A stretch of DNA of 64,000 bases from Candidatus Omnitrophota bacterium (GCA_041662125.1 JBAZTA010000002.1:76154-140153), one strand, 5' to 3'. Numbered from the stretch's first letter, positions 2-64,000 are shown. Numbers and translations: made by a program. Notes: generated from the letters alone by a model not told the origin.

Positions 2-3000
2 AAGCAAGTTTTGAGTATGGATAGTCAGTATGGTGATTGGGGTTTGTTTTCTTCCCGCATCAAACCGGCAACGCAGAAAATAGAACAATTCTTCGCGTCA
101 TCGCCGCTGGTATCATTAAAAGTCAGAGTTTTTGGTTTAACTGCCGCATTGCTCTGTCTTCCCGCGTTCGTGTTTGCCAGGACTTTTGAAGATGACTATT
201 ATTACCTTGAGGCTTTCCGTAATGTATTCCCTGTGATCTTGGGATTCGTTCAACAGCATTATTTCTTTATCGTCCTTGCCTCAGGGATTGCCTACGCGTA
301 TTTTGTCATATATAAACGCTGGGCAAAAAGCAGAAATAAAGAATTTACCGGGAAAGAACTTGAAGCGATGGCGGATACCGGCCTTAAAGCGGAAAATAGG
401 ACAATACAAGAAACTCTCGCTCCTTTATTGCGCAATTGTGAAAACGTTTTAAATTCCCAACGTATGACCGATGAAAGCGATCTTGATGGTATCTTAAATC
501 CGGCATTTCAAATCAATCAAATAACGCCCTTCTTTGTGAATATGGACAGGCCAGCCAGAGAAGCAACGGCAAAAATCCACGGTTCAATGGGAGAGTCATC
601 CAGGAAAGTCGCGCATAAAATTTACCGCATGCTGCGAAAAGGAATGGTTTCTCCTGATTTAAGGAGGAGCGTTTTTGTTAAATGCGATGAGATAATCCGT
701 ATTGCCCGGCATTCTTTAATATACAGTTACGGTATGCACGAGGGTAGTAATTGCCAGAAAGTGTCAGGATATATCCGTCCGCCGAATAGTTTTTGGGAAA
801 TAACCGCGATCCTTTCAGCGCCGCGCACGCTCTTTGGCCTTACCAGGGAAGGCTGGGTCAGTAGAAAGAAATATAATAAATTGGTCGTTGAGAAGCTCCT
901 GCCTTTGGGGAACACATTGGTTCCTGGTTTATACGATGAGAGCTTGATCAAGGAAAAATTAGAGCGGTACCTTAAATATATTTTCTCAGGGTGGAAGAAA
1001 TCAGAACTTGGCATTGAGATATGGTGGGGGCTTTTTAGCATGTTGCGCAGGTTGTCTACTACCATGTCATTTGCCTGGCTTGTGTATTTAATGATGCAGT
1101 CTCACCCCGCGCAGCTTGATTTATTCAGTTTTTGGAAACCGATCATGATCGCGTTATCGCCTATTTTATTGACTTGGGCAGTCTATCTCATTGCTATTAA
1201 ACTTGATATTTATTACCTATCACGATTGAAACGGTTAGATATATTAGAGCGGAAATTAAAGTCGCTTTCTGGTCAGGAATTCTTGTCCGAAGATCTGCTT
1301 CAAGGAGAGATGCTTTGTGAAGGTTATCGCCGGCTGAATAATGCCTTAGATATTGAGATCAATGGGGTAGAGCCGTCAGCGGACATTCTTTTTATTATGA
1401 CGGGAGATAATCAGGCAAATGCGCAGCGCTTGAGCCGTCATCTTGATGGATCAAAAGGAGTTCTGTGGAGAAAAGACGTTCCGGTCTTTATCGTCTCAAA
1501 TAAAGGCAGGGGCAACGGAATGTGTTTCTTAAAAACGCTGGAGCATCTTGATTTACATGCTCCCGCAGAACAATTCCTGGAAGCGTTGATGCAGGATGAA
1601 GATGCAGTATTATTGAATCCAGATTCTGGAGAGCACGGTTACCGTCATTTACGCGGAAAGAAAACCGGGGATTTAGGTGTATTCGCGTTGATCGCCGACA
1701 ATAAAGACCAGGAGTCAATGCTCAAAGAGCTTCCTTTAAAGGCTTTTGGAGGATTAACCGGCAGTATTAAAACTTTTGAATTACAGTTTTTAAATGGCTA
1801 TATTGCCTTGCGCGGGCTCAAAGAGGCAAAGAAAGAAAACCCTGGTGACAAGGATGTTTTTAACGGCGGCCTGGCGGTTTTTTGCGCGGATAGGATATAT
1901 ATCGGCCCCTTGGATTACTCAGGAGAAATTACCTTAGGCGGGGCGCTAACTTCTTATATCCAAATGAAAGTCCAGGAATTAGGCTTGTTTTTAGTTCACG
2001 GCGTTGGGGATATTGTTAAATACTTCGTGAAATTCTCTCACGATAAATTAGGCAACTACGTTGTGCGTGAAGCGGTGGGGTATATGTATGAGCTGGAGAA
2101 CCTTAAGAAACAGCAGATGCTTGCTTTTACGGGGAGCATTCTTATCGGTTTTAGAAACCCTGAAAAGATAAATACGTTGGTCAGGCTGCAGCGTGAATTA
2201 CAGAAATTTGTGATCATCCCGTATCTGCAGAAAAAACGTGTTATTCCGGAAATCAGGCTGCAGCAGGATATTTTAGTGCCGTTGATAATGACGTATCATG
2301 AGGAAGATATTTTTACCTATTTGTCCGCCCGAAAGAACCGTTTCCTGCCAATGAAACATAGAAAGTTTTACGAAAAGTGGTTTACTCATATCGAATTATA
2401 CTTTAAAACAAAGGCTCCGCTTGCTTTCCAGGTAAGCGCTCCTTATCCGAAGACTTCGGTGTACATTAAGAATACTCCTGATGAAATAAAGAATACTATT
2501 TTAAAAGATCTGCTTTTAGAGGAACAATCGTTGTATTTTCGCCAGGAAGCAGCCTCATATGAACAATTGCGGCGTTTGAATGATTGTGCCCTCGATAAAG
2601 CAGCAGCGGCAAGCCCGATGGATGTAAAAGAAATTTCTTTGGATGCCCGCAACCAAAAGATGCTTAATAAGCTCTGTGATGTCTGGATAACAGCAGTGAG
2701 AGGTTTTAAAGAAGGCCTGGAATCCAAGGCCTTAGTGGATCAATCTGAATATGATGATTTCTCCGCTTATATGAAATCAAGCGCTCAGACGATCAGTTCG
2801 TTCAGGTATGAGAATCCTAATATTGCCATGAGGGTTATCTTTCATACATTTTCCTGCGGTGATCCCTATCCGGAAGTTGATTTAGGGACGGCGTTTCAAA
2901 GCTTATCCCTTATCATTAAATTCGGCGTGAAAGAATCTCGCGATTTAGTTAAACCTTTGGAAGACCTGATAGGGATCATCGAAATCTTAAGGGGTACTAT

Positions 3001-6000
3001 TTATCAAACTAAAATACCGGTAGTTGCGCTTGCTCTTGATGGGATCCCGTCCTTATTTATACGTAAAGATGCTTTATTTAAGAATAAATCATCGTCAGCA
3101 ATATCGGTTCTTTACGCGCAAAAAGATATTTATGATTTAGTAGGTTCGTTTAAATGTTTAAATAGTATCATTGCCGGGGGCGGCGGTGATACCAAAGGGG
3201 TGATTGGCAATGTCTTTCCTTTAAAGGCGGCTTTTTCGATCCCTCAAGCTGCCGATTCCTATATATATTTCCCTAATGTGAAATATATGCTTGAGCATAT
3301 CTTCTTTGGGCCTGCTCCGACAAAATATTTCAAGTCTTTAATTGACGGTAAATTACAGTTGTTGAGCAACTGGAGAGATTCGAAATTTATTTTTGAGATC
3401 GGCCCTGAACTTACTCTTTCAGTGCCTTTGAAGAAGCGCAGGAATAAACCGGGTTATGTTGAGGTCAAGGGCCAGCCTGTTTTCGTAAACAGCCAATGGG
3501 GCGAAGGAAAAGTCGTGCGTACGTTGTCAAAAGACAATATACAGCTTTTACTGATGGATATATTGCCGGATTGGTATACGCTTGCTGACGATGCATCGAG
3601 AGTGTTTGATAAAGATTCATTAATTATTATAGGCGATATGGGGGGCGATATCCTTGCCCGTTACCCCGGCCCTATAGAGGATCATAAACATGCAGAGCGG
3701 TTTATGATCTCTGGGGTCACTGACCTCTGCCGCCTTCTCTTGGGCGCTGAATTGCAGCGGCGAGGATATACCGTTTTTGTCGCGATCTCTGCATTAGGCG
3801 GTGATTGTGAACTCAAGCGGACCGTTTCGATCTATCTTACTGAGCTTATGGAACTGGGATTTGTCAGGGCGTTGATCGATAATGTCGCGTATTACCGTAA
3901 CCATGACAGCCTTTTGCAGCGGATCAGAAAATTAGCTATTCCGGGTGAGGTCTCTCCGAATTTCTTCGAACGTATTTCAGCTTTCGCTAAAGGAGAACAG
4001 CCCTATTATGCCAAAGGTATTTCTCCGGAGAATTTATGTTTATGCGAGCCAGACCGCAGGATCAGATGTAAACCGATGCGGGGAGGATTAGATATGGAAG
4101 AAGCCCTTCCGGGCCTCTATCCTTATACGATCCTAATATATCCTTTAGATCTCATAAGTTTTATTGAAGATAAAGAATTAACCGGAAAAAGGTTAGGTTG
4201 GTGGGCTATCAATGATTACCTTGCGAACACCTTAGGATATGTGACGGAAGTGTATGGTTCAAAGATCAACGTTGAGACCGGTTCTTTGCATCGTATATTC
4301 GAAATTTATACTGCAAAGGGTAAAATAAAAGATAATGGGCAGGAGCTTCTGGCAATGGTGCTCAGCCAGGATTTCGGGATTAAGATCAGGCTTGCCGTTG
4401 CCATGGCGTTAGGCAGGAAGTTTAATAAAGTTACCGGCCCGGAGATAATAAAATTGCTTTATACCGAAGAATCAAATCCCTATGTCGTCAGTCAGATCGC
4501 TGAAGTCCTTGGAGTTATTCGTTATCGGCCGGCCCTGGCGCTTTTAGAAGCTTTGAAACGAAAGCCTAAGTCGTTCGGCGTTTGGCCATTCTTTCCGGGC
4601 AGTTTTTATCAGCATGCCGTTTCTACGATCAAAGAAAAAGCAAAAGTAGCGCTTGAGCTTATAGAAAAGGACGCCGCTTCTGCCGCATCGCCGGTCGTCT
4701 GCGGTGATTTCGGCAGCGTGTTGACGCAAAAGCAAATAGTGTCTCTTTTAGCGTCAAATGTGTTTGTTAATAAGAATCTTTTGAGAGTTTCAAACGTAAA
4801 AGTGGTTAAAATATATTCTCAAGCAAAAACTGCTCCCGAAGAGTTGGAATCCCAGTGCCCTGTTTTGGTCAACAGCGTGGCAAATGTTGTTTTATCGGTT
4901 TTGCCGTATCTATCTAAAAACCAGTTTGATCTCAATCAAATAAGAGCAAATGAGCATGCGGCCTTCCTCATGTTTGATGCTTTAGAGCAGTTTTTCCAGC
5001 AACACCTTCATTATTCAGGGATAGTTACTATTGGGGAAAAGCAGCGTTACGGCGTTCCGGGTTTAGTAGCCGCGGGTAAAAAGTTCGGAAGAGGGCCGGT
5101 AAAGGTCGAAATTGCTACGGATGTGATTGAAAGTTCTCAAAATATCACTGAACATAGCAAGAAAAACGCCTCTAATATGGCGACAGTTTTGGGAATAGGG
5201 GCAAAAGGCGATTTTATCGGCCTACCGGATGAATTGTATCTCAATAAAATAGCCGTTGGCAGCGCGGCGGCAGGGAAAGGTTTTTCGCCTCATTTAAACC
5301 AATCGGTTCGGGAAACGCTTGAAGCGTTATCTGCTGCTTTAGGAAAAAGCATTCATGAATTACGTGTCGCTCTTTTATTGCGGGACAGGCATGAAGAGTT
5401 AATCCATGAATTGATCGACGCAGGTATCAGTGTGGAGACAGAGGATCTGGCGGTTATGAAACAGGAAATTGCGCAAAAAGGAATATATAAAAACGGGAAT
5501 ATATATTTACTCACCCGAGGTGATTTTCTGCCTTTTGTCGGCCTTTACGCGGATACGTTAGATTGTATTTTAGGTGTTGGAAAGCCGACGGAAGGAGAGA
5601 TTACCTTTCATGTTACGCAGATGCTGGGCGGTCAGATGTGCTACCGCTTGGCCAGTTATGATGCTTTAAAGAATGGGGAGAATGATATTGTGCTCATCCG
5701 GGATGAGAATAATTTTAGTGAAAGAGAGATCGGTGTATTGCGCAATAGCGCTTTAACGGGCATGAGCAAGGATGCATTAAAGAAAAAGGCATACAGTGAG
5801 ATTTCTACCCATCCGCGGCTTCGTGATGCCGGGATCGCTATAGCATTCGTAAAAGATAATTATTGGGATAGAGATATTAAGGGCATTAAGGTCGATCTTG
5901 AAACGGGGGAGGTAACGGTCGATGTTTTTTGGGCAGGAGTTTCAGGGGATGCCAAGATCTTTAGGATAACATATGAATCTATGATTTCAGGAATTAAGGA

Positions 6001-57000: not shown

Positions 57001-60000
57001 GTATGTAATTAAGGACCGGATCTTTACGCGCACAAACCTTGAATATTACTTCCTGCTTTATACATTTATGGGGGACCTTTCTTATGCGCAAGCCACTTTC
57101 ATTACGTCCCGCGTTGAGGAGAATATTCAGGATAATGATGACGTGATCGCGTTATACAACCTTCAGGAACAAGGCAAGGCTGTTTTCTTGCGGCAGGATA
57201 AGTTGTTTAACTATTTTGCGTTTAAAACTCATGAAACCGTAGAGGTCAAGGAAATAGATCTGGGGGATAAAAGAGTCATTTTGGTCAAAGATCCCCAGGG
57301 AAGGCTTTATGGACAGTTGGGCATTGATGCCCATATCAAATTGGCCCTTCAGCAAAGCCGGGTTACCTGGGATGTTACGGAGGAAGAATCCCGGTTTTTG
57401 GCAGAGGCGATACAAGGCGTATACCCGCCAGCGGTGCTAGTACCTTTGGAATTAGGCGTTGGGAAAAATGATTATATCAGGTACATAAAGAAAGATATGG
57501 AGAGTTTTATCGAGCAAGGCAAGGGGACCTGGTGTTTCCCCGATCATCTTTTGGATATCGCGCAGCGGTTCGGCTTGTATCCATCTGACCTGATAAAAGA
57601 CGCCTTCGTGAATAAGAATTTAAGCGAGCACACGCAAATAAGATATTATACAAAACTCATCGAGAATATATTTAGAAAGCAATTCCCTATCTACAACAGT
57701 TGTTCTATTTTATATGATGAGTCTCTGGCAGGATTATTCAAACTCAAAAGCGCGGCTGATTTTGAGCAGTTAGCGAAAGATATGTGGGATAAAACCGATT
57801 GTATGCAGGTCTATTTGAACGCAGTGATGATGCCTCATGGAGCATCTTTTGAGATCGGCTCTTTGCATCAGTTCATGAGCCGGGTCATCCTTCCTGAGCT
57901 AAGCCGTATACGCCCGCAGGGTGAGCCGTTGCGCATGCTCTGTTTGGGCTGCGAAGAAGGTGCTGATGCGTATATGCTAGCCATGGAATTATTAGAAAGC
58001 GGATGGGATACAAAAGCGCGGCCTGTTGAGATCACGGGCGTTGGCATTAACCGTTTTGCGATTGAAATTGCGCAAGCCGGGCATTTTAGGCGAAATAATA
58101 TCGATAAGCTTTCCGAGGAAACAGTGAATAAGTATTTTGCTTTGGACGCAGAAACCGGATTGTATGTAATAAATAGCCGTTTGAAAGCAATGGTGAGTTT
58201 TCAAACGGCAAACTTCTTAGAAGCGCAAATCCGCAAACTCTTGGGGGGCTTTGATTTTATTCTGCTTAATCAAATGATCGATTGCTTTTCGCATGAGGCC
58301 CATATGCCAGTGGAGCGGGATATTTTAAGAGAAATGCTTTCCCCGGGAGGATTTTATACCACTCACTATTCGCCCTCGCGTGTTGTCCCGGAAGTTGAGG
58401 TTAGTATGTATCATTTAACAGATAATCCTTTCAGGGAAAGTGTTGTTCAGAAAATTTGTTCTGAGTCAAGAATTTATAACGAATATATAAAAAGTTCTTC
58501 TCCTTTGACGAGTGATTTAAAAGGCCTGACTATTCTTGTGACTGCCGGGCCAAATCAGGAGCGTATCCCTGGAAGGCCGGAGTATATTACAAATTTCTCG
58601 TCAGGCAAACAAGGATTTGCCATCGCTGCTGCCGCAAAGGCGCGAGGCGCGCGCGTTATCCTTATCGCTGGGCCTACGTATTTAGAAACTCCTGATAACG
58701 TTATAAGGGTCGATGTGGTCACTGCCCTGGAAATGAAAGAAGCGGTAGCAAAATACCTGCGCTTTGCCGATGTTTACATTTCAGCCGCGGCAGTCGCCGA
58801 TTACCGCCCGGTAAAGCTCGAGAAAGAAGGCAGGCGCGATTTTACCGTAACACTCCACAATAATCCCGATATTTTAAAATGGGTCGGCAGCCTTAAGAAA
58901 GAAAAAAGTGAGTTTTCATCTCTGGTGGTGGTTGGTTTTGCCGCAGAGACTGTGGAGCCGGGAGAAATGGTGGAAGAGGCGCGCCGTAAATTTATCGCCA
59001 AGAACATGGATTTTATTTGCGCCAATAGAGTTGGGCAGGAGGGAAGCGGATTTCGCAGTGAAAACAATAAAGTAGTAATAATCAGGGAGAATAAAGACGA
59101 TGATCATTGTTTGGAAGCGTCAAAATCCGATGTCGCCAATAAGATATTAGATGCAGTTTTAGATGTCCGTGAAAGGCGTTCGCTTGGATCTGTTATCAGG
59201 GCTGTGGAGTTGGAAGGAGAGCTTCAGGAACAAAGCCAAGCGCTGCGGTCTACCCAGCAGGCGCGGTATCCGCCGTTTGCGGGCATCGCGGGAAAAACGA
59301 TTTTGATTTCTGCCGGATCGACAGAAGAATCCATTGACGGGGTCAGGATCGTCAGCCGTGCGGTAAAGTTCGATTTACCGTACGCGATCGCTGCAATAGC
59401 TCGTATAAGTGGGGCTAAGGTGGTCCTGATAAGCGGACCAACTCATACGCCTCCTCCCGAAGGTGTCAGATTTATTCAAGTAGCTACTGCCCAAGAGATG
59501 GCAAGACAGATAAGAAAATACCTCAAGCAAGCGGATATTTTCATCAATTTAGCCCGCCCGCCTTTTATCAAACCACGGCAGCAGCAATCCCAAAAGATCA
59601 AGAAACAAGGCAAGGAACTGACACAATGGTATTTTACCTTAAACGATGGGATCTCTCGTTTAGGTGAACGAAGCAGGCATTTAAATAGGATTTTGGTTGA
59701 AGACGGATATGAGTCAGTTGATTTAAGCGAAGCGCTCTTTTTTATCAGGGCTGCGATAGCAAAAGTGCTATTTCTCGCCCAGCCTCTTTCTTTATGCGCC
59801 GCGGAAGCTCCGCAAAGGAGTTTTGAGGAATATCGGGCTATCGGAGTTTTTGTGGTGAACAGCCATGGCTTGAGAATAAACTTTTCGCCTATCGAACAGG
59901 CTTTGAGTAAAGTAAATGATTATCTTTGTGAAAAGGGCCGCTTGGCATTAGTCAGGAATGCGTTGCGTGCGCAGGGTATCCAGGCGGAAAAAATAGATGA

Positions 60001-63000
60001 GGTAGTAACGCTGGCTCAAGATTATCTTAAGAATAGAAAAATAGAACTGGAACAGCTCAAAGAGATCCAGTTTTCTTATGCCCTTTTAGATTGGTTTAAG
60101 GCTGCGCAAATCCTATCTCTTCGCAAAGGTGAGTTTGTTTCTCTGGCAGAGCGGGGGGATCTGGCGCTGGTTCTGCACCAGGTAAAGGTGCGCGTTATAG
60201 CTGCCTCATTACCGCGGCATCCGTGCGCATCATCCGCGCTTAAACAAAAGATAACTCCTGCGAAAGTATCTACGTTGTTTATTGTTGCTATCCTGCTTAC
60301 CGTAGTTAATGCCGTTGCAGTTGTCGTTGCCGCTCTCTTTGGAAGCGAGATGACCATTTATCTGGCATCATTGGTATCGAACATCATTATTGCTCCTTTT
60401 GCGGAAGAGATTTTATTCAGAAGAGTTATATTTAAAGGTTTATTGGTTGATCGGTATAAGGTCAGTACCGGGAAAAGCATTTTTATAAGCGCGGCTCTTT
60501 TCGCGGCGTATCATTTAATTATCCCGTTTTTTGCCGGAATCAGGTTTATACCTATTAAGCAATTTTTGTCCGGGGTCGTATATGCGTCTGTGTATGTTAG
60601 GACACGATCGTTACTGGCTATTATTATTCTTCATGCTGTCAGTAATATAGTTACCGAGACAGCTGTTTTGTTCGGATTTATCAATCAAATGCCTTTTTAT
60701 GCTACTGCCGTAATGTTGATCGCAAGCCTGATTTTATTCCCCCGTAGGCCTGTTAGAAAAGCTTTTTCGAGCGGTGATGAAAAAGAGAAACTCAAAGAAA
60801 AGAAAGGCAAAGTTCTTCAGGAGAAAAAAGGCGCCGCGGCAGAAGGCCGCAAAAAAGGTAAAAAGAATGCTGCTTCTCAGAAAAAATCCAGCTCAAGCGC
60901 GCTTGGGGAAACGAATAACGAAAATCTGACTTTTGAATGGGGCAAAGACCGAATAGGGCAGTATTATTGGGACGCAGGATGTATCTCTATTTATGCTACG
61001 GAACAATTATTTGTGCTTAAACTTTTTGAGAATCCTTTGACACTGCGTTTTACGTTATTGATCGATAAAGCCAAAAAAGAGACTTTGATCTTATACGGCC
61101 CGCAAATTCCATTATTCTTCTGGGAAAGAGATAGTGAGGAGCGCCAGCAGCGTTATCAGCATAGGGATGAACCGTCTCTGGCAGTTAAATTCTTTCCAAA
61201 ATACCGGGAATTGCAGATCAGGGTTAATGAAGAGGTTTTCCAAGATTTATTGAGTCAGAATTTCCCGCTTTCAGGAACCTTTCCGGTAACTATGGAGAAC
61301 GGACTGCATTGGAGATTTGTGGAACACTTTACCCCGCTATTTTCTGTCCCTCCCGGGCATAGTAATAGGATCCATATTACTGTTGCGGGTATTGTAAGGG
61401 TATATTTGGAACAAAATGCCGATACCCAAGCAATTAAAAATATCCCGGAAGTATTGCGGCAACAATATATGTATAATTTTAATAGCTTGATAGAGCTGCT
61501 TGGTTTGCTGGTGGGGTATCCTGTTAAATACCTCAAGCGATACTCGGGGCTTTCAGCTTGCGGCGCATTGCATGAGTCTGGCGATTCCTTTGTTGAAGTT
61601 CTCGAAGGTCTTTTTGACGATTTTTTAAGGATTATTCCGGTAACCTATGATGAACATAAGAAGCGGCTTGTTTACAATGTTGCCTATCCTTTAGAGGGGA
61701 ATATTCTTCTTACTAAAACTCAAATTACGGACAGTATGATGAATTATCCTGTACCTTACGGAAAAAAGGTCGCGGTTTTTGAGATGTCAGATGGCGATCA
61801 TTTAGCTTTTGCGGGAAACTTTGTCAGCTCCCTTCAGGAAGAAAATGAGGTTAGGATTTTTACCAGTGGACAGCTTCCTTTAGAGCAGGTGACAGGAGAT
61901 TATGAACCTGATGTTATTCTGGTTCCGTATTGCCCGGATGCCAGAAGGCTGGTACGTCAGTATTCCTCTGTTAGGCCGCGTGAGTTGATGGCGTTCTATT
62001 ATGCTTCCCTGGAATTACCTCTTGAGTTTAATCTCGTCTTTTCTTTTGGTGAAGAAACCGCAGGAAAAGTTGTGGAAGCTGTTGGCGCGCATAAGTCACA
62101 GCAGGAACGCAGAGATTACAAAAGTTTTACCCGGTTTATCATGCAATATACGGGCGCTTTAGCCGGTTACTACGGTTTCACGCAGAAAAAAGATGCTTAT
62201 GCTCACGCCTTTAGTGTTACTCGCATAGAAAAAGGAAAAGTTTTGCCGGTTGATCTTTCAAAACGGTATGCGCTGGCATTTGAAAAAGAAAAACCGCATG
62301 CTGGGTTTACTCCTGTTAGGATAAATAATAATACTTATGTAAGAGCTTCTCCTCCTCATCCTGATGATATAGAAATCGCCGTAGGGGGTTTGATGGCGCA
62401 GCTTGCTCAAAAAGGGATAGAGGTCACAAACTTGATCTTTAGCAGCGGTGAGCGCGGCGTAGTCTTGAGTGAGGCGCAGGAGAAAAAAGGTTTAACCGGT
62501 GCCGAGATCCGCCGTGAAGAATTATGTAATGCCACAAAAATCTTAGCTCCCGGCGGAATGGTGAAGAACATTCATTTGGATTATGACTATACCTACGCAC
62601 GAGATCCGGAGGGGACACAAGAACAGTTGTATGCACTGGAAAAGGAATTATTAAAACAGCGTTCTTCCGGTAGAAATATCCCAGAAGTGGTTTTATTTAT
62701 TCCTCATCCTCGTGACGATAATAAAACCCATAGAATATTTGCCCGGCTTTTAGAGCAGGTGTGGGGCCGGTTATCTCAAGAGCATACTATTACTGTTACG
62801 GTCATTTATTACTTGGCGCCATCAGCCGGGAAGTATAACACTTTTTTCCCGACGACATATAATGTTTTGCCGCAGAGCGCTGATAATGTTCAGATGTTGA
62901 AAAAGGTTAAGTCCGTTGAGCCGTTTAAGCGGGCAATTTCTATTATTATCCCCTCGCGGACAGGCCTTTCAGCCCAGCAAGGCCCGCACCAGATGGAATT

Positions 63001-64000
63001 CGGCGAGTTTGGGGAGAGATTTTTCCGGGAGAGTTATAAAGACGGGAAATTAGTAGTTCAGAGCATAGCGCAGCCCAAGAGAAGCGCCTCTCCGCGGGGG
63101 GACGTACTGACCCTTCCCCTGTTAGCTGGATTAATCGCTCCTTTCGATTATAAACAATTTTACCTTTACAATGAGGCATTAAATAATCATCTGTCTTCTT
63201 TCTTTTTTACCTATGAGTGGCTTATTAAAGCAGGGGTATTTTCCTTAATTTTTATTCCTGCGGGATACGTTATTTATAGGTACATTTCGTATATAAAGAA
63301 AATATCATTGAAAAAACTTCCGCCGTATTTTTATCAGTCTTTAAAGACAGCAATCTTAAATAAATTCATGCTCTGTAATCTTGCCGTGTATGGCATTGGT
63401 TTGTACCTTGCTGATCAAATTGTGGGAGCCCCAGAGTATGTTATAAAAATCTGCCCTCTCAGCAATGCTTTATTATTCATATACATAGCAATGTCAATAT
63501 TAATTTACAAAATATCTTTGGAGTCAATTTTTAGTATAGATGCAAAGATTAATCAGTATTTAATTGAATTAAAGAGAATCAGGAAAACAAAAGATAATGA
63601 TAGAAGAAATAAAAATGTCCCCATTTCTCCTTCTGTTTCAAGTTCTCCTATAGAAGAGATACCTGCGGTATTGCGCAATGTAGCGAAAATATTGCAACCG
63701 CTCTTAAAACCTGATGAAGATTTCTATTTTAACGGAGGCATCGTCAGGGATTTGCTGTTAGGGAAGTTGTTGGATATTCGCGATATAGATATTATTATTG
63801 TTACCCAGGCCAATAGCCGCGTACAAGAGATAATAGATGAATTAAAGGCTCAGGGGTTGGAGAGAGACGGTTGTATCATGATGGATGGGGTTATTTTAGA
63901 TATAGGCAGTAATGAAGATGGTAAAGGTAATATTCACAGGCATGGTGATGGGGTTATCGCTTGTTTTACCCGTATGCTCGGTAGGCCCGTGTTGGTTAAA
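2..64000 (+). CDS. Internal fragment of a giant multi-domain ORF, at least 21,333 codons, 5' and 3' ends outside the window. Mosaic of enzyme-like, regulator-like and transmembrane modules.
   Basis: Codon phase starting at nt 2 shows no stop in any of about 30 regions I translated by hand (e.g. 2-1900, 9002-9060, 15062-15240, 17222-17760, 26162-26440, 28982-29090, 29702-30780, 39782-40324, 42002-42060, 46202-46320, 57902-58300, 58502-59100, 62342-62460, 63962-64000). The ORF track lists + strand ORFs only in the other two phases and none in this phase, although an in-frame ATG sits at nt 17. That is expected only if no in-frame stop exists in the window. Codon-like composition is uniform, and diverged paralogous modules stay in the same frame. 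Confidence 0.85.
95..109 (+). repeat. First copy of the recurring inter-module linker A-S-S-P-L (gcg tca tcg ccg ctg).
   Basis: The same [S/A]SP[LIMV] peptide, frequently encoded by the identical nucleotide string tcgccgctg, recurs in frame at about 25 further positions (listed in findings). Confidence 0.6.
110..331 (+). other. Cluster of hydrophobic, transmembrane-like helices.
   Basis: Translation VRVFGLTAALLCLPAFVFA and VFPVILGFVQQHYFFIVLASGIAYAYFVIY has the length and hydrophobicity of TM helices. More TM-like helices lie at about 1030-1220 (MSFAWLVYLMMQ, IMIALSPILLTWAVYLIAI). Confidence 0.4.
4322..4570 (+). other. HEAT/PBS-lyase-like repeat block.
   Basis: GIKIRLAVAMALGRKFNKVTGPEIIKLLYTEESNPYVVSQIAEVLGVIRYRPALALLEALK fits the V-R-x-A-A-x-x-A-L-G consensus spacing of HEAT-like repeats. 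Confidence 0.3.
7682..7813 (+). other. Helix-turn-helix-like motif, one of about three in 7400-8170.
   Basis: TLSAVAQELKMSRGNLQKFLRR resembles a Fis/XRE-type HTH. Nearby are LAVVLGKDPSSVSRGL and KKLAQRFGVAEITILRFF. Confidence 0.3.
9692..10300 (+). other. HEAT/ARM-like alpha-solenoid repeats.
   Basis: Repeating units such as DPRMRAYAYRIIGAIG, LRMLLLIGQQEG and PQAVVLCLIKSYTDDPSMIPVIDKIL recur with a 30-40 aa period. Confidence 0.35.
11027..11515 (+). repeat. Copy 1 of a conserved domain of unknown function (signature GH-x-VI-x-G ... FFFK ... EF ... TGE-x-I-x-VH ... IGG-x-RP ... MES-x-LDE).
   Basis: GHIVILGQVPQSGELKIGRKWARLDASLYGLSNYLLEMNNGIPVRMFFFKTHTALEFLPAVNNKTGGIEVVHMGQIF...LGDLSIGGGRPHSD...GLVWRLTSLESDLDRAYLRIM aligns with copies at 47465 and 49259. 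Confidence 0.5.
14696..14902 (+). other. ACT-like small regulatory domain upstream of the HD domain.
   Basis: LMRFTIPHQPAQLLRITRLLRERGINIQSFMTPTFSQYHQNMRFIMQLGIP has a beta-alpha-beta ACT-like pattern. Sequence-weak. Confidence 0.25.
15062..15469 (+). other. RelA/SpoT-type HD domain, like a (p)ppGpp hydrolase or Mesh1-type small alarmone hydrolase.
   Basis: MMHPLDVAIIAANQFGIRDEGLLEMIILAALLHDTIEDGDIS...FGDDIYAIVNLLTK...IAYLRQL...IARLIKIADRIHNLQTLAG matches the SpoT HD signatures HP-x-x-VA, AALLHD-x-IEDT and LIKLADRLHNMRTL. Confidence 0.75.
15842..16162 (+). other. Second HD-type metal-dependent phosphohydrolase domain.
   Basis: HTLSHGDDVSDLAGYLAQHLGL...RIASQLHDVEKIHNREV...IEFHHRPQM has the H...HD...H...D spacing typical of HD domains. 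Confidence 0.4.
16742..17182 (+). other. Site-2 protease, peptidase M50B (SpoIVFB-like) intramembrane zinc-metalloprotease module.
   Basis: Hydrophobic helix FTIPLTILFVIPLTLIFIIASILHEYVHLLMAKIFGLETGKVRLF carries HExxH in a TM segment followed by G-x-x-V. Downstream FIYLAGPAMDLFLGAVFLF matches the AGP-x-x-N-x-x-L motif, and NSLNPKYSTDEGLKSDGY matches N-x-x-P-x-x-x-x-DG. Confidence 0.55.
17213..17227 (+). repeat. Linker S-S-S-P-L (agc tcc tcg ccg ctg).
   Basis: In-frame copy of the recurring linker, with the octamer tcgccgct conserved. Confidence 0.6.
17228..17878 (+). other. Minimal protein-kinase-like fold module (eukaryotic-like, RIO or Kdo-kinase-like).
   Basis: NLVVRISK matches the beta-3 Lys. 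EFQRFQQLARLG matches the alpha-C Glu. MLVERVQGNSL is a hinge. YISDFKPANIMF matches the catalytic loop HRDLKPANIL. VICDAM sits in the DFG position. The module is delimited by SSSPL linkers at both ends (17213-17227, 17879-17893). Confidence 0.5.
17981..19228 (+). repeat. PHP (polymerase and histidinol phosphatase) phosphoesterase module, paralog copy 1.
   Basis: VDLHTHTVESDGYSNPAAAILEAFERGMSGLAITDHNTF...IPGLEITTYFEGVVVHLLVYLPGYY...VAHTGSKLAIAHPNE carries the PHP His/Asp motifs. It aligns along its full length with 38111-39385 (about 40-50% identity by eye). Confidence 0.7.
19502..19900 (+). other. Class-I SAM-methyltransferase-like fold (weak).
   Basis: PLYVLDWGAGNLRAAVRLGKML...IIDSAPNLF...LLSPHGVIVFDVYG resembles motif I hh-D-x-G-x-G and a post-motif-II strand. 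Confidence 0.3.
20171..20500 (+). other. TM helix cluster with a second HExxH motif (HEWLH), a possible membrane metalloprotease-like module.
   Basis: IVSIFALMLILQV, LAIFITGVILTLLNFMSGLGANILPF and YLLVWVLNKYF are TM-like. LLIHEWLHAYQIILIYHAG holds an HExxH at 20466-20480. Confidence 0.3.
20732..20743 (+). repeat. Linker S-S-P-L (tcc tcg ccg ctg).
   Basis: In-frame recurring linker. Translation is TNPVSSPLTVTDGF. Confidence 0.6.
20744..21601 (+). other. Alpha/beta-hydrolase-fold-like module (weak).
   Basis: VVISVHGLGCV (HG-x-G start), MVESYGAAVFVEW (nucleophile-elbow-like) and YVTGGDHYAAMTNPAVV (C-terminal His region) appear in the order expected for an alpha/beta hydrolase. Confidence 0.3.
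21611..21619 (+). repeat. Linker (A)-S-P-L (tcg ccg ctg).
   Basis: Translation is SAASPLALQD. Confidence 0.6.
23462..23473 (+). repeat. Linker S-S-P-L (tcc tcg ccg cta).
   Basis: Translation is EHASSPLEKV. Confidence 0.6.
24200..24799 (+). other. Nucleotidyltransferase head domain of the poly(A) polymerase or tRNA CCA-adding type, copy 1.
   Basis: EIIIAGGPVRDLLLGLRFNRGDNEAGIKDVDVIL matches the PolyA_pol head signature GG-x-VRD-x-LLG ... D-x-D. Confidence 0.65.
25085..25093 (+). repeat. Linker (SSSAA)-S-P-L (tcg ccg ctg).
   Basis: Translation is VSSSAASPLVLR. Confidence 0.6.
25196..25798 (+). repeat. Unknown-function module A (YYVNAG ... F-x-IHVVVTN ... GGFNGIMCNVGG ... GGWLQVDA).
   Basis: Aligns with module A-prime at 27173-27733: YYVNAGQEKDIEFLINTIAKYMG versus YYINAGHQPEITFLIESIADYMK, FEIHVVVTNVDPRG versus FKVHVVVTNIVPRR, GGFNGIMCNVGGD versus GGFNGILCNVGGA, GGWLQVDA versus DGWLQVDA. 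Both end in an [S/A]SPL linker. Confidence 0.55.
25802..25810 (+). repeat. Linker (A)-S-P-L (tcg ccg ctg).
   Basis: Translation is IGASPLAQRR. Confidence 0.6.
25811..26566 (+). other. Subtilase (peptidase S8)-like module with the catalytic Ser replaced by Cys.
   Basis: IIILDDFVID is an Asp-box-like stretch and VPHGILIEN is a His-box-like stretch. FVMCAGNGRQNSPGGY matches the Asn/oxyanion region AAGN. NVIPVAAAEISKTGYTKAYYSCFGPDVMFCADGSDSQNAQGTCIAAARISL parallels subtilisin SVIAVGA...SFSS-G-x-x-DV-x-APG...GTSMAAPHVAG, with GTC in place of GTS. Confidence 0.45.
27173..27733 (+). repeat. Module A-prime, paralog of 25196-25798.
   Basis: See module A. About 45% identity by eye. Followed by the SSSPL linker at 27734-27748. 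Confidence 0.55.
27749..29044 (+). other. Class-I SAM-dependent methyltransferase module, PrmA-like (ribosomal protein L11 MTase type).
   Basis: AERFRGARVLDLGCGRGISSLFAALLGAKTVVGVDNDP matches motif I plus the acidic post-I residue. LPFDIVMANIG matches the PrmA F-D-h-h-h-A-N-I motif. Core at 28190-28500. Confidence 0.7.
29045..29056 (+). repeat. Linker A-S-P-L (gcc tcg ccg ttg).
   Basis: Translation is KISAASPLASSIELLIFDLT. Confidence 0.6.
29057..29755 (+). other. HAD-superfamily hydrolase-like module (beta-phosphoglucomutase or phosphatase subfamily).
   Basis: IELLIFDLTQTL is a motif-I position reading D-L-T rather than D-x-D. YRLALATNNG matches motif II (S/T). KGKPDPGIFYELCKLQGVSPERAVSIGNSRQHDLEAAAQIGM matches motifs III-IV (K ... 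G-D-S-x-x-D, here GNS-x-x-D). Confidence 0.55.
29750..29764 (+). repeat. Linker S-A-S-P-L.
   Basis: agc gcc tcg ccg cta, in frame. Confidence 0.6.
30062..30745 (+). other. Sigma-70-family module (regions 2.1-2.4 and region 4) embedded in the giant ORF.
   Basis: AAREVLIVTNVPMVIYRVIRQY...DDLIQVGIYGRGDRVGGLARAVERFEPERGIRFISFALQWIDAVLLQAVRE parallels RpoD region 2 (LVEANLRLVVSIAKKY...[41 protein letters not shown]). LQLEISERDKDILSRLLDAEKQSYIANHYRIKPQRVQQIFKRLTKMLKE parallels region 4 (...[20 protein letters not shown]). Confidence 0.6.
30761..30775 (+). repeat. Linker S-A-S-P-L.
   Basis: agt gcc tcc ccg cta, in frame. Confidence 0.55.
31622..31792 (+). other. Phosphoribosyltransferase (type I PRTase, ComF/GntX-like) module with an atypical PRPP-binding loop.
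   Basis: VTDVDLRGKSVLLLDDAAAERNVHLACMERILRAGATQVFVVRIG follows the PRT pattern (hydrophobic strand, DD, loop, helix, GA..V) but reads DDAAAERN where the canonical motif is DD-x-x-TGGT. Confidence 0.35.
32195..32455 (+). other. Class-I methyltransferase-like module (PrmA-like core).
   Basis: MHVIDCGSGRAELSLAALRLNSSVDSIEIDS is motif I. REIAIVSNIGSWG matches the PrmA-like x-h-h-V-S/A-N-I motif. Bounded by TSPL (31817-31828) and SSPI (about 32672). Confidence 0.45.
35882..36136 (+). other. ACT domain-like module.
   Basis: FELSILAEDKPGLIALVISALSDSGISMFRLAPPQKESGLLSYEFIFQP...EADISKALSEIEGITYEVRLVP matches the ACT pattern (strand, G-x-h helix, strand; D/E-D-x-P-G-h-h). Confidence 0.45.
38111..39385 (+). 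repeat. PHP phosphoesterase module, paralog copy 2.
   Basis: GQIDLHTHTLLSDAYATPSAMVLKAYEEGLAGIAITDHDMF...IPGLEITTLFEGVEVHLLVYLPGY...VAQAGAKLAIAHPSE. Co-linear with copy 1 from the N-terminal SAARAIIEEVLG helix to the C-terminal tail. Ends at the ASPM linker. Confidence 0.7.
39782..40324 (+). other. TIM-barrel phosphate-binding module, ThiG (thiazole synthase)-like or IGPS-like.
   Basis: IQLIGECGIGEPEHVRQVLKMGCNGVLVNNAITQSADPIAAAVAFRDAV resembles the ThiG C-terminus (VDAGVGT-x-SDAA-x-AMELGCDAVLMNTAIA-x-A-x-DPV-x-MA-x-AF). Confidence 0.35.
41882..42040 (+). other. Transmembrane helix cluster.
   Basis: GGISTCLLMFGLFLSIFYAVAAYFESYNVLFVPLFIVWACRFYW. Two hydrophobic helices. Confidence 0.4.
44072..44596 (+). 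other. Phosphoribulokinase/uridine-kinase family P-loop kinase module (intact Walker A).
   Basis: PLYIVSVGGGAGVGKTTFVDRLKRAL is a Walker A of PRK/URK type. VQVIILDGLHV parallels the IIIEGLH motif. PIFMDTAVDVLKAWRFQQEW parallels FVDTD-x-DVRL-x-RRI-x-RD. Confidence 0.65.
45350..45700 (+). other. Possible GNAT acetyltransferase-like fold (weak).
   Basis: IYNIDIFPNMQREGIAKVILLKLFASCIEAERHLTIYDAGCADRIYNLVKYYF resembles GNAT motif A (Q/R-x-x-G-x-A ... h-x-h-x-V ... N ... A). Confidence 0.25.
47465..49258 (+). repeat. Tandem repeat unit 1 (about 1.79 kb, 598 aa): unknown domain copy 2 plus a charged helical tail.
   Basis: GHAVIAGTMPQGGSLSLGGYLFKFTQYGGVDYELEVEAGLLKRIFFMNDYSLVEFLSVLDRCTGEIIDLHCGKI...CQSMESEFDETFSLI...WINFGEEYSYRY...GELLAVFEKWSDK aligns residue-for-residue with unit 2, which begins 1794 nt downstream. 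Confidence 0.6.
49259..51100 (+). repeat. Tandem repeat unit 2: unknown domain copy 3 plus a coiled-coil-like tail.
   Basis: GHVVIRGVLKGNFALRIGEYSFGFRGYADSAYELEVDNGILRQIFFFKDHTLFEFFPIIDNHTGEVIDVHRGTI...CTSMESGLDEPFILI...WMDFGADCGYGF...GELIEVFERWSEN. About 35% identity to unit 1 by eye. Confidence 0.6.
50402..51250 (+). other. Charged coiled-coil-like segment.
   Basis: Runs such as LETEKIRVSGEKTIARRADTIRALIVEVNSLRQKIRRMDEKTAKLLEEDL and KEIRRKRLLSSREKELVRNLREDLRQANALASLEQL show heptad-like R/E/K/L periodicity. The - strand ORF 50725-51117 is its antisense shadow. Confidence 0.4.
52082..52399 (+). other. Pol-beta-superfamily nucleotidyltransferase module of GlnD/GlnE type.
   Basis: PFSVWMVGSMGYLGLARKGISDVNLLVLTE matches the h-G-S-x-G-R-G-E-L ... 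S-D-h-D-L-h-h-L catalytic motif of GlnD/GlnE-type NTases. Confidence 0.45.
54260..54730 (+). other. Uridine-kinase/PRK-like module with a degenerate P-loop (candidate pseudokinase).
   Basis: ADIKIFLECDEIERLQRIKDY and DADYVVDT parallel the uridine kinase C-terminal motifs. The Walker-A position reads AIIRITSRPGADEAEII, with no G-K-T/S. Confidence 0.3.
56228..56401 (+). other. Possible GHKL-ATPase N-box-like segment (weak).
   Basis: NYGEIHFALRDLLHNALVHGNHFKLSLPVFF resembles the E-x-x-x-N-A-x-x-H-G N-box of RsbW/SpoIIAB/histidine-kinase ATPases. Confidence 0.2.
57854..58330 (+). other. CheR-type protein-glutamate O-methyltransferase-like module.
   Basis: GEPLRMLCLGCEEGADAYMLAMELLESGW...VEITGVGINRFAIEIAQAGHF...LSEETVNKYF...YVINSRLKAMVSFQTANFLE...GGFDFILLNQMIDCF parallels CheR (LRIWSAACSTGEEPYSLAI-x-L ... 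I-x-ATDID ... A-x-x-G-x-Y ... YF ... V-x-F ... N-L-L ... FD-x-I-F-C-R-N-V-h-I-Y-F). Confidence 0.75.
58502..59134 (+). other. CoaB (phosphopantothenate-cysteine ligase; C-terminal Dfp/CoaBC domain) module, motifs intact.
   Basis: [54 protein letters not shown]...VIRVDVVTALEMKEAV...ISAAAVADYRP...LHNNPDIL...VVGFAAET...KNMDFICANRV...GFRSENNKVVII is co-linear with E. coli Dfp CoaB ([47 protein letters not shown] ... CAAVADYR ... KNPDIV ... VVGFAAET ... KNLDLICAND ... GFNSDNN). Confidence 0.85.
59282..59662 (+). repeat. Degenerate second CoaB-like half-domain, tandem to the intact one.
   Basis: KTILISAGSTEESIDGVRIVSRAVKFDLPYAIAAIARISGAKVVLISGPTHTPPPEGVRFIQVATAQEM keeps the CoaB fold signature, but the SSGK and AAVADY motifs are lost (SRAVKFDL, INLARPPF). 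Confidence 0.5.
60266..60760 (+). other. CPBP-family (CAAX protease/bacteriocin-processing, Abi) intramembrane metalloprotease module.
   Basis: Four hydrophobic helices carry the three CPBP motifs in order: APFAEEILFRRVIF (EExxxR), ISAALFAAYH (FxxxH) and IIILHAVSNIV (HxxxN). Confidence 0.8.
60761..60907 (+). repeat. Lys/Gly/Ala-rich low-complexity basic segment.
   Basis: SGDEKEKLKEKKGKVLQEKKGAAAEGRKKGKKNAASQKKSSSSALGE, immediately after the last CPBP helix. Confidence 0.5.
62342..62800 (+). other. PIG-L/LmbE-family deacetylase module (GlcNAc-deacetylase fold, like BshB/MshB).
   Basis: RASPPHPDDIEIAVGGLMAQLAQKGIEVTNLIFSSGERG matches the A-H-P-D-D-E-x-x-G-x-G-G-T-h-A ... H-x-V signature. Downstream IPHPRDDNKTHRI supplies the H-x-x-D-H-like metal ligands. 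Confidence 0.75.
63200..63499 (+). other. Transmembrane helix cluster.
   Basis: AGVFSLIFIPAGYVIYRYI, MLCNLAVYGIGLYLADQIV and NALLFIYIAMSILIYKI are TM-like. Confidence 0.35.
63701..64000 (+). other. Nucleotidyltransferase head domain (poly(A) polymerase or CCA type), copy 2, truncated by the window end.
   Basis: DEDFYFNGGIVRDLLLGKLLDIRDIDIIIVT matches GG-x-VRDLLLG ... D-I-D. Paralogous to 24272-24430. Confidence 0.6.

Follow-up and report, generated by a model that had tools for sequence, protein, structure and literature searches.

A recurring S-S-P-[LIVM] motif as a probable in-frame junction between the modules of a giant multi-enzyme gene from Candidatus Omnitrophota

The recently discovered giant genes of Omnitrophota are 30–440 kb long. 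They include a class described as a "multi-enzyme metabolic cluster" (Nielsen & Lui 2026, 10.64898/2026.06.07.730766), and Archaeovorins and lists of giant-protein domains have been presented in a study in which cleavage of the giants was proposed and the cleavage points were stated as unknown (West-Roberts et al. 2023, 10.1101/2023.11.21.568195). Whether the product is one polypeptide or is cut is a question in the published work, and the lack of cleavage points blocks structure prediction and interpretation. Here, we analyze one such gene, contained in a stretch of 64,000 nucleotides (nt) from a Candidatus Omnitrophota bacterium (GCA_041662125.1, JBAZTA010000002.1:76154-140153; the whole stretch is hereafter called the window), and in particular a short peptide motif of the SSPL type that recurs along its product.

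The window resembles the multi-enzyme class (Nielsen & Lui 2026) in that it carries an open reading frame (ORF) of more than 64 kb along which unrelated enzyme domains of Pfam are tiled (GlpX FBPase, HD, HAD, methyltransferases, PHP and kinases); its product has at least 21,333 amino acids (aa), where that class begins at 10,000 aa. Like other Omnitrophota giants, it has HEAT scaffolding and scattered transmembrane (TM)-like segments, and the protein is unique in sequence with a conserved architectural logic. Its domains overlap with those listed by West-Roberts et al. (2023). When the 21,333 aa were scanned with Pfam (cut-off E ≤ 0.01), none of the Archaeovorin- or dockerin-type features (dockerin, TSP3, C39, S8 and the SecA-related C-terminal region) was found in the window, outside of which the gene ends lie. 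A recurrent junction motif, linkers, mosaicism, shuffling or candidate sites of cleavage are not mentioned in either study (10.64898/2026.06.07.730766; 10.1101/2023.11.21.568195), and no literature linking Omnitrophota with a polyprotein was found. The gene class is already known, and the junction motif is without description in the literature found.

Three groups of better-known systems share some of these properties. The MARTX toxins of Vibrio are very large mosaics of unrelated effectors, the repertoire of which varies by strain through recombination, and they are cleaved after Leu in the unstructured linkers between the effectors. The window protein is likewise a very large mosaic of unrelated modules, but these modules are housekeeping-type enzymes, the motif is a defined S-S-P-[LIVM] that is also conserved in its nucleotides, and the scale is about ten times larger; the C80 cysteine protease domain and the glycine-rich MARTX repeats are absent from the Pfam results of the window, and no tandem repeats were found there. 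In viral polyproteins and in the light-harvesting complex (LHC) polyproteins of dinoflagellates and Euglena, one ORF gives many mature proteins, with short conserved linkers such as those of SPLR-ending units. The ORF of the window also has many units separated by a short recurrent motif of lineage-specific sequence, and about 50 such junctions were found at unit boundaries, as detailed below. It differs from these polyproteins in being bacterial and in carrying heterogeneous enzymes instead of many copies of one protein or a set of replication proteins; moreover, a protease that would cut at its motif was not identified. In polymorphic toxins, the VENN motif of CdiA and the PxxxxDPxGL motif of Rhs mark the point of cassette exchange, the Rhs motif being a cleavage site as well, and in polyketide synthases and nonribosomal peptide synthetases (PKS/NRPS), modules are swapped by recombination. 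A short conserved motif at the point of cassette exchange is common to these systems and the window; however, the window has about 50 serial junctions instead of one per protein, no toxin/immunity logic, and no carrier-protein chemistry of the PKS/NRPS kind. To our knowledge, none of the MARTX, polyprotein and VENN/DPxGL systems has about 50 serial junctions conserved at both the peptide and the nucleotide levels.

Recurrence of the motif and its position between folded units

The window consists of a single plus-strand ORF in frame 2 (nt 2–64000; 21,333 codons) that is free of stops and open at both ends; the remaining five reading frames contain 848–1855 stops. A preliminary description of this DNA had proposed that an SSPL-type linker punctuates the megaprotein, and this was borne out: the in-frame pattern [SA]SP[LIMV] was observed 31 times, whereas 300 codon shuffles gave it 1.95 times on average and 7 times at most. 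In full, the motif reads [SAG]-[SA]-S-P-[LIVM], with P→A and P→S variants. The 5-mer [SAG][SA]SP[LIVM] occurs 27 times (0.37 expected), its P→A form 12 times (0.64 expected) and its P→S form 5 times (0.73 expected), so that the variants add 17 sites. The over-representation is about 16- to 70-fold; among all 4-mers of the protein, SSSP shows the strongest enrichment (63-fold). The motif has a sharp definition, with S and P invariant, position +3 aliphatic, and position −1, which lies outside the search pattern, small (S, A or G in 41 of the 46 junctions of the window and of its closest relative, L001, introduced below). Position +4 prefers A, E, V or T.

When TSPL, SSPA, SSPS and SSPP are included, the total reaches about 50 junctions, twice the number of modules (about 25) given earlier. 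The 25 positions listed at that time are all in-frame motifs within 5 nt of the coordinate given (22 canonical, with ASSL at 26567, TSPL at 31817 and SSPA at 44699), while nine canonical sites had been overlooked, at nt 2609, 4685, 9452, 10520, 14360, 15770, 16703, 42833 and 52673. The module size of 200–600 aa also needs revision, since the junction spacing ranges from 9 to 1845 aa, with a median of about 390 aa with the variants and 594 aa for the canonical junctions only. In contrast, the excess of the octamer TCGCCGCT was confirmed: the window has 13 occurrences, where codon shuffles gave 0.62 and protein-preserving synonymous-codon shuffles 1.04 (maximum 5). Junctions account for eleven in-frame occurrences, one at nt 101 and ten between nt 17219 and 31820, and the other two (nt 27414 and 37149) are off-frame chance matches.

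The positions of the junctions relative to folded units were examined in three ways. One is the comparison with Pfam envelopes: none of 48 junctions lies within an envelope (16 envelopes, 2016 aa; P = 0.008). Domains start shortly past the nearest junction (7 aa for CoaB, 8 for HAD, 26 for M50, 27 for the nucleotidyltransferase head and 44 for CPBP), and they also end shortly ahead of one (9 aa for ThiG, and 19 aa ahead of SSPA for PRK). Another is structure prediction. In an AlphaFold2 model of aa 19440–19900 (45 CoaBC homologues in the alignment; mean predicted local distance difference test score (pLDDT) 77), which covers one junction, that between CheR and CoaB, the sequence SSPLTSDLKG forms a coil, with a helix ahead of it and strand 1 of CoaB after it, and pLDDT climbs from 56 through 80 to 96. 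The last is the average profile over all junctions, in which polarity and disorder propensity are elevated only within about 8 aa around the motif. This narrow elevation indicates short boundaries, and long disordered linkers were therefore rejected.

The ends of the units agree with those of independent proteins. An exhaustive HMMER search with aa 5739–6914 as the query provided stand-alone PHP-module proteins of 433–571 aa, among them a Margulisbacteria protein and the Omnitrophota protein of locus L002, and the ends of these proteins fall no more than about 10 aa from the junctions at aa 5961 and 6397. The preceding module, aa 5804–5964, shares 77% identity with the start of a 550-aa protein whose gene is surrounded by ordinary genes at locus L082, and the homology between this protein and the window ends at the junction, where L082 has VSSSL. 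The earlier view of the modules as self-contained proteins is upheld by these matches and by the location of the junctions outside Pfam domains; a placement of the linkers inside folded cores was observed neither in the envelopes nor in the modelled CheR/CoaB junction.

Module order and nucleotide conservation in related giant genes

The closest relative of the window, L001 (CAZPNW010000152.1), was found by scanning one genome per species with both PHP paralogues. It is labelled "uncultured Planctomycetales", while L002 and the giant protein P0034 are labelled Candidatus Omnitrophota; the window itself contains no marker genes. The 16.2 kb of L001 constitute a single open frame, which encodes 5406 aa and includes 15 canonical junctions. 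The window and L001 share nine blocks in BLASTP (48–85% identity), the order of which is changed: for example, the HAD module is located between the PHP and ThiG modules in L001, and after aa 9586–9686 in the window. At the junctions, the nucleotide identity between the two genes is 82–93% on the shared side and 18–32% on the other side, and the switch occurs inside the 12-nt motif at ten junctions. Of the 17 informative block ends, 13 are at most 8 aa away from a junction, canonical or variant (binomial P = 4e-10, with a chance of 0.108 for each end); the others mostly fall on additional variants, which are SSAL/SSSL in L001 and SSPS/SSPP in the window. Furthermore, tandem junctions with spacers of 8–24 aa occupy the positions of whole modules in the other genome (window aa 13104–13128; L001 aa 2162–2174).

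Internal paralogues, searched by self-BLAST in overlapping chunks, follow the same boundaries: the two PHP paralogues of the window (44% identity) both start at a junction, and both end at ASSAL/AASAL, which corresponds to AASPL in L001. In a further relative, L085 (ADZX01000494.1), a CPBP module (51% identity) precedes a CoaB module (48%), in the reverse of the window order, and the CPBP homology block opens at a window SSAL junction. The giant coding region of L085 (nt 3–16713) is distributed over three overlapping frames (frame 2, nt 3–4571; frame 1, nt 4469–12106; frame 0, nt 12061–16713; overlaps of about 100 and 45 nt), and these frame changes could be sequencing errors of an old assembly, pseudogenisation or real frameshifts.

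Homology between related giant genes switches at the junction, which is thus shown to be the place of in-frame gain, loss and movement of modules. Recombination junctions for module shuffling were one of the possibilities raised in the preliminary description, and the reordering in L001, with homology switching at the 12-nt junction, and the CPBP/CoaB reversal in L085 speak for it. From these alignments, a role of the motif as a junction and shuffling breakpoint appears very likely.

The next point is whether the DNA or the peptide is conserved. An alignment of the flanks gave a double answer: both levels are conserved, and the nucleotide level only over about 15 nt, (gcc)-[GT]CC-TCG-CCG-CTG-(gcg), beyond which the flanks are not conserved; no symmetry is present. 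Related motifs recur in other giant genes. The C-terminal part of P0032/L083 (5093 aa) has mainly ASPL (21 sites against 0.6 expected), P0021/P0154/L084 (6538 aa) has SSSPV (17 against 0.82), P0034 has [SA]SP[LIMV] (4 against 0.24), and L085 has SSSL/SSAL, with 11 motif-like sites listed, canonical and variant. The Ser before Pro at the junctions is encoded by TCG in 56% of the cases in the window, 53% in L001, 67% in L083 and 71% in L084, as against 12% of all Ser codons and about 20–25% of other Ser-Pro pairs. In L083, 11 of 25 junctions are exactly GCCTCGCCGCTG (GCC TCG CCG CTG), the same 12-mer as in the window, and the only module common to these two genes is 26–29% identical. Each gene contains a second, discrete nucleotide class as well: TCT/AGT-TCT-CCT-NTN in the window from 45 kb on, and TCA-AGC-CCA-TTG in L083.

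The linkers of the 3′ half had been explained as simple synonymous drift. This does not hold, because a change of serine from TCN to AGY needs two changes, and the retention of S-S-P across it indicates that the peptide itself is under selection. Recent homogenisation, another of the early proposals, survives in part. The discrete nucleotide classes within a gene look like copying of junctions; however, the occurrence of the same nucleotide version in L083, the shared module of which is only about 28% identical, means that recent homogenisation within this gene is not the whole cause. At the level of sequence comparison, the junction was shown to be conserved as a peptide, irrespective of the serine codon family and even between lineages with hardly any other sequence in common, and as nucleotides, in discrete versions (xCC-TCG-CCG-CTG) that recur within a gene and between distant genes.

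Three other candidate functions were tried and rejected. One is a genome-wide signal of the Chi, uptake or KOPS type: the 9-mer TCGCCGCTG has no occurrence in 18 kb of ordinary flanking genes (10 kb at L083 and 8 kb at L084; a small sample), whereas the giant gene of L083 contains it 8.5 times per 10 kb, and L082 lacks it as well. Its lack in ordinary flanking genes thus argues against a genome-wide signal. Another is an RNA hairpin at CGCC-GCT-GGCG, the folding energy of which equals that of GC-matched controls (P = 0.9). The last is an internal start codon after the junction; many position-4 codons (GTT, CTA, CTT and TTA) are not starts, and the sequence logo has no upstream purine-rich signal.

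The module search also recovered other large multi-enzyme proteins, which have private motifs spaced 200–1000 aa apart. P0039 (L086, nt 6001–14901) has (p)EGASPE[WF]xG seven times, with the nucleotides AGCCCTGAGTGG kept in five of the seven; R[SA]E[VS]R recurs ten times in P0029; and P0060 (L087, nt 5398–14226) has (a)GLEE eight times with variable codons. These motifs suggest a general, lineage-specific junction "grammar" across megaproteins. In L087 (nt 3650–20226), four successive large ORFs (582, 2942, 1005 and more than 966 aa) each open with a Sec-type signal peptide (...PAFALR...), and GLEE, the same motif as in their interiors, occurs 37–52 aa from the start; the junction motif thus comes after an export signal too. 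On the unrelated contigs of L083 (nt 15307–19359) and L084 (nt 29633–34801), PilZ-domain genes come directly after the giant gene, with ABC-transporter permease or ATPase genes behind them, an order that may be conserved synteny.

Junctions and domains along the window

Unrelated enzyme and membrane-protein domains are strung along the ORF, in about 16 distinct Pfam families, none of which dominates by copy number. All of the junctions and Pfam domains described in this section are on the plus strand. The first junction is SSPL (TCATCGCCGCTG; nt 98..109), after which a hydrophobic TM-like segment occurs. It is followed by ASPM (2609..2620), the SSAI variant (3092..3103), a HEAT match (HEAT_2, around aa 1453) and ASPV (4685..4696), with the GlpX-type fructose-1,6-bisphosphatase (FBPase_glpX, aa 1658–1885) in the next module. 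Then come the variants SSAL (7175..7186) and SSSV (8699..8710), an SSPL with a TM-like segment 29 aa downstream (9452..9463), and an SSPV (10520..10531) that opens a module having two later paralogues (aa 15760–16034 and 16276–16700). After the SSAV variant (12707..12718), SSPI (14360..14371) precedes the module with HD_4 (aa 5013–5149).

From here on, homology to L001 can be followed. It begins at the ASPI of a tandem of SSSI and ASPI placed 9 aa apart (15743..15781). The SSPL at 16703..16714 is a block boundary, and the membrane module of the M50 site-2-protease-like domain (aa 5594–5698) begins 17–26 aa downstream of it; the SSPL at 17216..17227 (TCCTCGCCGCTG) is common to L001 (aa 1546). 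The SSPL at 17882..17893 is a breakpoint, with nucleotide identity of 93% upstream and 28% downstream, and the start of the first PHP module (PHP at aa 6055); this module is a paralogue of aa 12677–13104, and homology to the stand-alone protein P0005 stops at this junction. The module ends at the SSAL variant at 19190..19201, which aligns with AASPL of L001.

In the next part, SSPL (TCCTCGCCGCTG; 20732..20743), ASPL (GCCTCGCCGCTG; 21608..21619), SSPL (23462..23473), ASPL (GCCTCGCCGCTG; 25082..25093), a further ASPL (25799..25810) and the ASSL variant (26567..26578) occur in succession, and the SSPL at 27737..27748 precedes the module with a PrmA-like methyltransferase (aa 9389–9482). The HAD domain (aa 9690–9867) begins 8 aa downstream of the ASPL at 29045..29056, the upstream side of which corresponds to L001 aa 2162 and the downstream side to L001 aa 3762. 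The HAD module ends at the ASPL at 29753..29764, again a breakpoint (85% upstream, 27% downstream), with which the SSAV variant at 29807..29818 is in tandem. A weak match to Sigma-70 region 2 (Sigma70_r2, aa 10075–10138), ASPL (30764..30775) and a TSPL variant containing TCGCCGCT (31817..31828) follow. SSPI (32669..32680) is the exact start of homology to L001 aa 2174, the SSPS variant (33587..33598) is a block boundary at which L001 has ASPV, and after an SSPL (34379..34390), the SSPV at 37547..37558 has the same 12 nt as L001 at aa 2978. The SSPP variant (37982..37993) aligns with the SSSPL of L001 at aa 3124, a block end, and SSPM (38030..38041) is both the start of the second PHP module (PHP at aa 12763) and a breakpoint (22% upstream, 72% downstream). 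A tandem of ASAL, a 20-aa spacer and ASPM (39311..39394) comes before the ThiG-like module (ThiG at aa 13246–13430); at this tandem, L001 has the HAD module and a 335-aa module.

In the last third, the ASAL variant at 40316..40327 lies 9 aa past the end of the ThiG domain, and the SSSI variant at 41795..41806 has a TM-like segment 42 aa downstream. After the SSAL variant at 42497..42508 and a tandem of ASAL and SSPV placed 28 aa apart (42749..42844), the SSPA variant (44699..44710) follows the end of the PRK/uridine-kinase domain (aa 14696–14881) at 19 aa. The 30 aa before the SSPL at 45284..45295 (TCTTCTCCTCTC) are paralogous to aa 6–34 ahead of the nt 98 junction. The variants ASAI (45767..45778) and SSSL (46370..46381) are succeeded by SSPL (TCTTCTCCTTTA; 47138..47149), which leads into a junction-free unit of 1845 aa with internal repeats; SSPV (AGTTCTCCTGTT; 52673..52684) and SSPI (AGTTCTCCGATT; 53957..53968) follow. 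CheR (aa 19289–19450) ends 49 aa upstream of the SSPL at 58496..58507, the coil of the model, and the fold of CoaB/DFP (aa 19506–19694; E = 2e-77) begins 7 aa downstream. The module of the Rce1-like/CPBP membrane protease (221 aa; domain at aa 20121–20217) extends from the SSAL variant at 60230..60241, which is also the start of the L085 homology block, to the SSAL variant at 60893..60904. PIG-L (aa 20785–20920) and SSPI (63641..63652) are the last features before the PolyA_pol/CCA-type nucleotidyltransferase head, which begins at aa 21241, 27 aa past that junction.

Repeats other than the PHP pair were also noted. The N-terminal half of CoaB is duplicated (aa 19501–19596 and 19757–19851, 38% identity; within nt 58496–59560, aa 19499–19851), and in the AlphaFold2 model a long helix (model residues 269–316) lies between the two half copies. 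A module family lacking Pfam matches has three copies (aa 3543–3949, 15760–16200 and 16276–16814; 28–35% identity), two of which are in tandem within the longest junction-free unit (nt 47138–52672, aa 15713–17558), the third being at nt 10520–11850.

A Kyte-Doolittle hydropathy scan, which is a crude predictor, gave 17 TM-like segments in the window. Five of them begin 2–42 aa past a junction, like the N-terminal anchors of formerly independent membrane proteins. Single predicted segments are also found between cytoplasm-type enzymes: the one at aa 3180 (about nt 9539) between FBPase and HD, and the one at aa 13974 (about nt 41921) between ThiG and PRK. Since single segments separate them, an uncut chain would place FBPase and HD, and likewise ThiG and PRK, on opposite sides of the membrane.

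The G+C content of the window is 40–45%. The GC skew is positive across all 64 kb (0.10–0.20), which fits either a coding strand that is the leading strand or a strong bias tied to transcription. Searches of the window for tRNAs, Rfam families and tandem repeats were negative. Apart from the giant ORF, only two ORFs reach 150 aa; both are on the minus strand, at nt 7143–7631 (162 aa) and nt 23959–24615 (218 aa), antisense within the giant gene, and are probably spurious. Among 5.8 billion proteins, no homologues of aa 7821–9249 were found, and the PHP-module profile matched generic PHP proteins only. A megablast search of 24 kb of the window against plasmids and phages gave no match, and the only match to the PHP C-terminal profile in a metagenome scan was one distant locus.

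Readings of the junction and their meaning

Taken as a whole, the motif is best explained as a conserved in-frame junction between autonomous, protein-sized modules that have been concatenated into a giant multi-enzyme ORF, and we consider this explanation probable. In the proposed mechanism, the common 12–15 nt would supply microhomology or a recognised site, and recombination from junction to junction would preserve the frame. Each event would copy a junction, and such copying would account for the nucleotide classes and for the concentration of DNA-identical junctions where the gene is most rearranged (17–32 kb). Since conservation of the peptide does not depend on the DNA, the junction should also act in the protein. 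The likeliest role there would be that of a recognition site for the endoproteolytic release of modules, following polyprotein logic, and the alternative would be a neutral, fold-insulating boundary. Release by proteolysis would resolve the topological conflict of the enzymes split by single TM-like segments. Judged from the sequences, processing at the junction is possible, but we would put it somewhat below an even chance.

Several points weigh against the explanation as an in-frame module junction. The upstream side of the AlphaFold2 model has no alignment depth, and low confidence there says little. The repeats within aa 15713–17558 have no junction between the copies, and some deletions apparently end in a module tail instead of at a junction (spacer aa 13104–13128). 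The comparison covers a single close relative, the 16 kb of L001, besides a few distant ones, too small a set to fix the rate, direction and mechanism of the rearrangement, and the giant genes of the window and L001 could be paralogous rather than orthologous. A length of 12 nt is shorter than is usual for RecA-dependent recombination, and no recombinase was seen in the window, which is without gene flanks.

An alternative is that cleavage is the primary function: a dedicated endopeptidase would read x-[SA]-S-P-[LIVM] and free about 50 enzymes and membrane proteins, and shuffling would be a by-product, as only junction-to-junction joins would stay processable. The conservation of the peptide regardless of codon and lineage fits this alternative, as do the location of the junctions between domains and the equivalence of the modules to full-length stand-alone proteins. 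The private motifs EGASPE[WF], R[SA]E[VS]R and GLEE at similar spacing are what co-evolution with protease sites predicts, cutting of giants has been proposed (West-Roberts et al. 2023, 10.1101/2023.11.21.568195), and the split of cytoplasm-type enzymes at aa 3180 and 13974 points in the same direction, although the TM evidence comes from a crude hydropathy scan. On the other hand, no Pfam protease of fitting specificity was found in the 21,333 aa, where only the M50 and Rce1-like/CPBP domains, both intramembrane and of known specificities that do not match the motif, occur, and many proteases disfavour a Pro next to the bond that they cut; these two points also count against the processing part of the explanation that we prefer. 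Moreover, cleavage alone does not account for identical nucleotides in distant lineages. From sequence evidence of this kind, cleavage as the primary function seems a somewhat doubtful possibility.

The motif may instead be a passive, flexible Ser/Pro-rich hinge that is copied with the modules and kept alike by gene conversion or repeated duplication. The discrete nucleotide classes of each gene do look like copies of founder junctions, and the DNA-identical junctions cluster at 17–32 kb, where the modules are short and the rearrangements relative to L001 are concentrated. However, the same peptide is made from unrelated codons (TCN and AGY) in one gene, it is kept in lineages less than 30% identical in their sole shared module, and it is sharply defined, unlike generic PT/ST-rich linkers; in addition, the identical nucleotide version of L083 cannot stem from recent homogenisation inside the present gene. 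The limited data also point to purifying selection that acts on the S-P core more than on the linker residues beside it. A passive hinge is therefore unlikely.

We also regard as unlikely a more elaborate form of the preferred explanation, in which the junction would be a dual-purpose element: an in-frame insertion, excision and reshuffling site in the DNA (an xCC-TCG-CCG-CTG-GCG core or its lineage equivalents) and, at the same time, a cleavage signal in the protein, with junction, recombination and protease specificity co-evolving in each lineage (SSP[LV], EGASPEW, RSEVR and GLEE). Such an element would follow the "repeat-cassette" logic of an integron or a CRISPR array, but inside a coding sequence.

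A dedicated target of a site-specific recombinase of the integron or shufflon type, or a genome-wide signal translated as SSPL, would agree with a 12–15-nt core that is kept across lineages and with the cassette-like layout, in which "empty" tandem junctions stand opposite modules of the other genome. As in integrons and shufflons, the order and content of the cassettes differ between relatives, with the breakpoints at the sites (the window against L001 and L085). The site architecture of those systems was not found, however, since an inverted repeat or secondary structure is absent and the conservation covers about 15 nt. No recombinase was found within 8–10 kb downstream of the L083 and L084 giant genes (the downstream side only), the absence of TCGCCGCTG from the 18 kb of non-giant flanks and from L082 speaks against a genome-wide signal, and many junctions keep the peptide without the nucleotide core. 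This alternative is quite improbable.

Translational punctuation, in which Pro together with the G-ending, locally rare codons TCG-CCG-CTG would slow the ribosome so that the modules fold in turn, has in its favor that TCG (12%) and CTG (15%) are minor codons and yet dominate the junctions in four giant genes, and that the junctions are placed exactly at domain starts. About a third to half of the junctions, however, use the commonest codons (TCT-CCT-TTA), the RNA structure is no more than a GC effect (P = 0.9), and the breakpoints at the junction are left unexplained, so that we consider this alternative very unlikely. Finally, a chance or compositional artefact of a 21,333-aa protein in which Ser and Leu are abundant was ruled out, with a probability that is practically negligible, by the shuffles (31 sites against 1.95, with a maximum of 7 in 300 shuffles; octamer 13 against about 1), the position −1 bias, the domain boundaries and the homology breakpoints.

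For the giant proteins of this kind, the junction motif is the first concrete candidate for a site of possible cutting. It provides an objective way to divide the giants into protein-sized units for annotation and folding, and it specifies precise places at which neo-termini can be sought in existing proteomes. The in-frame shuffling of cassettes at a short junction is a possible route by which giant genes that are "sequence-unique but architecturally similar" are built. If it is true that other lineages use private junction motifs, this would amount to a general grammar of bacterial megaproteins.

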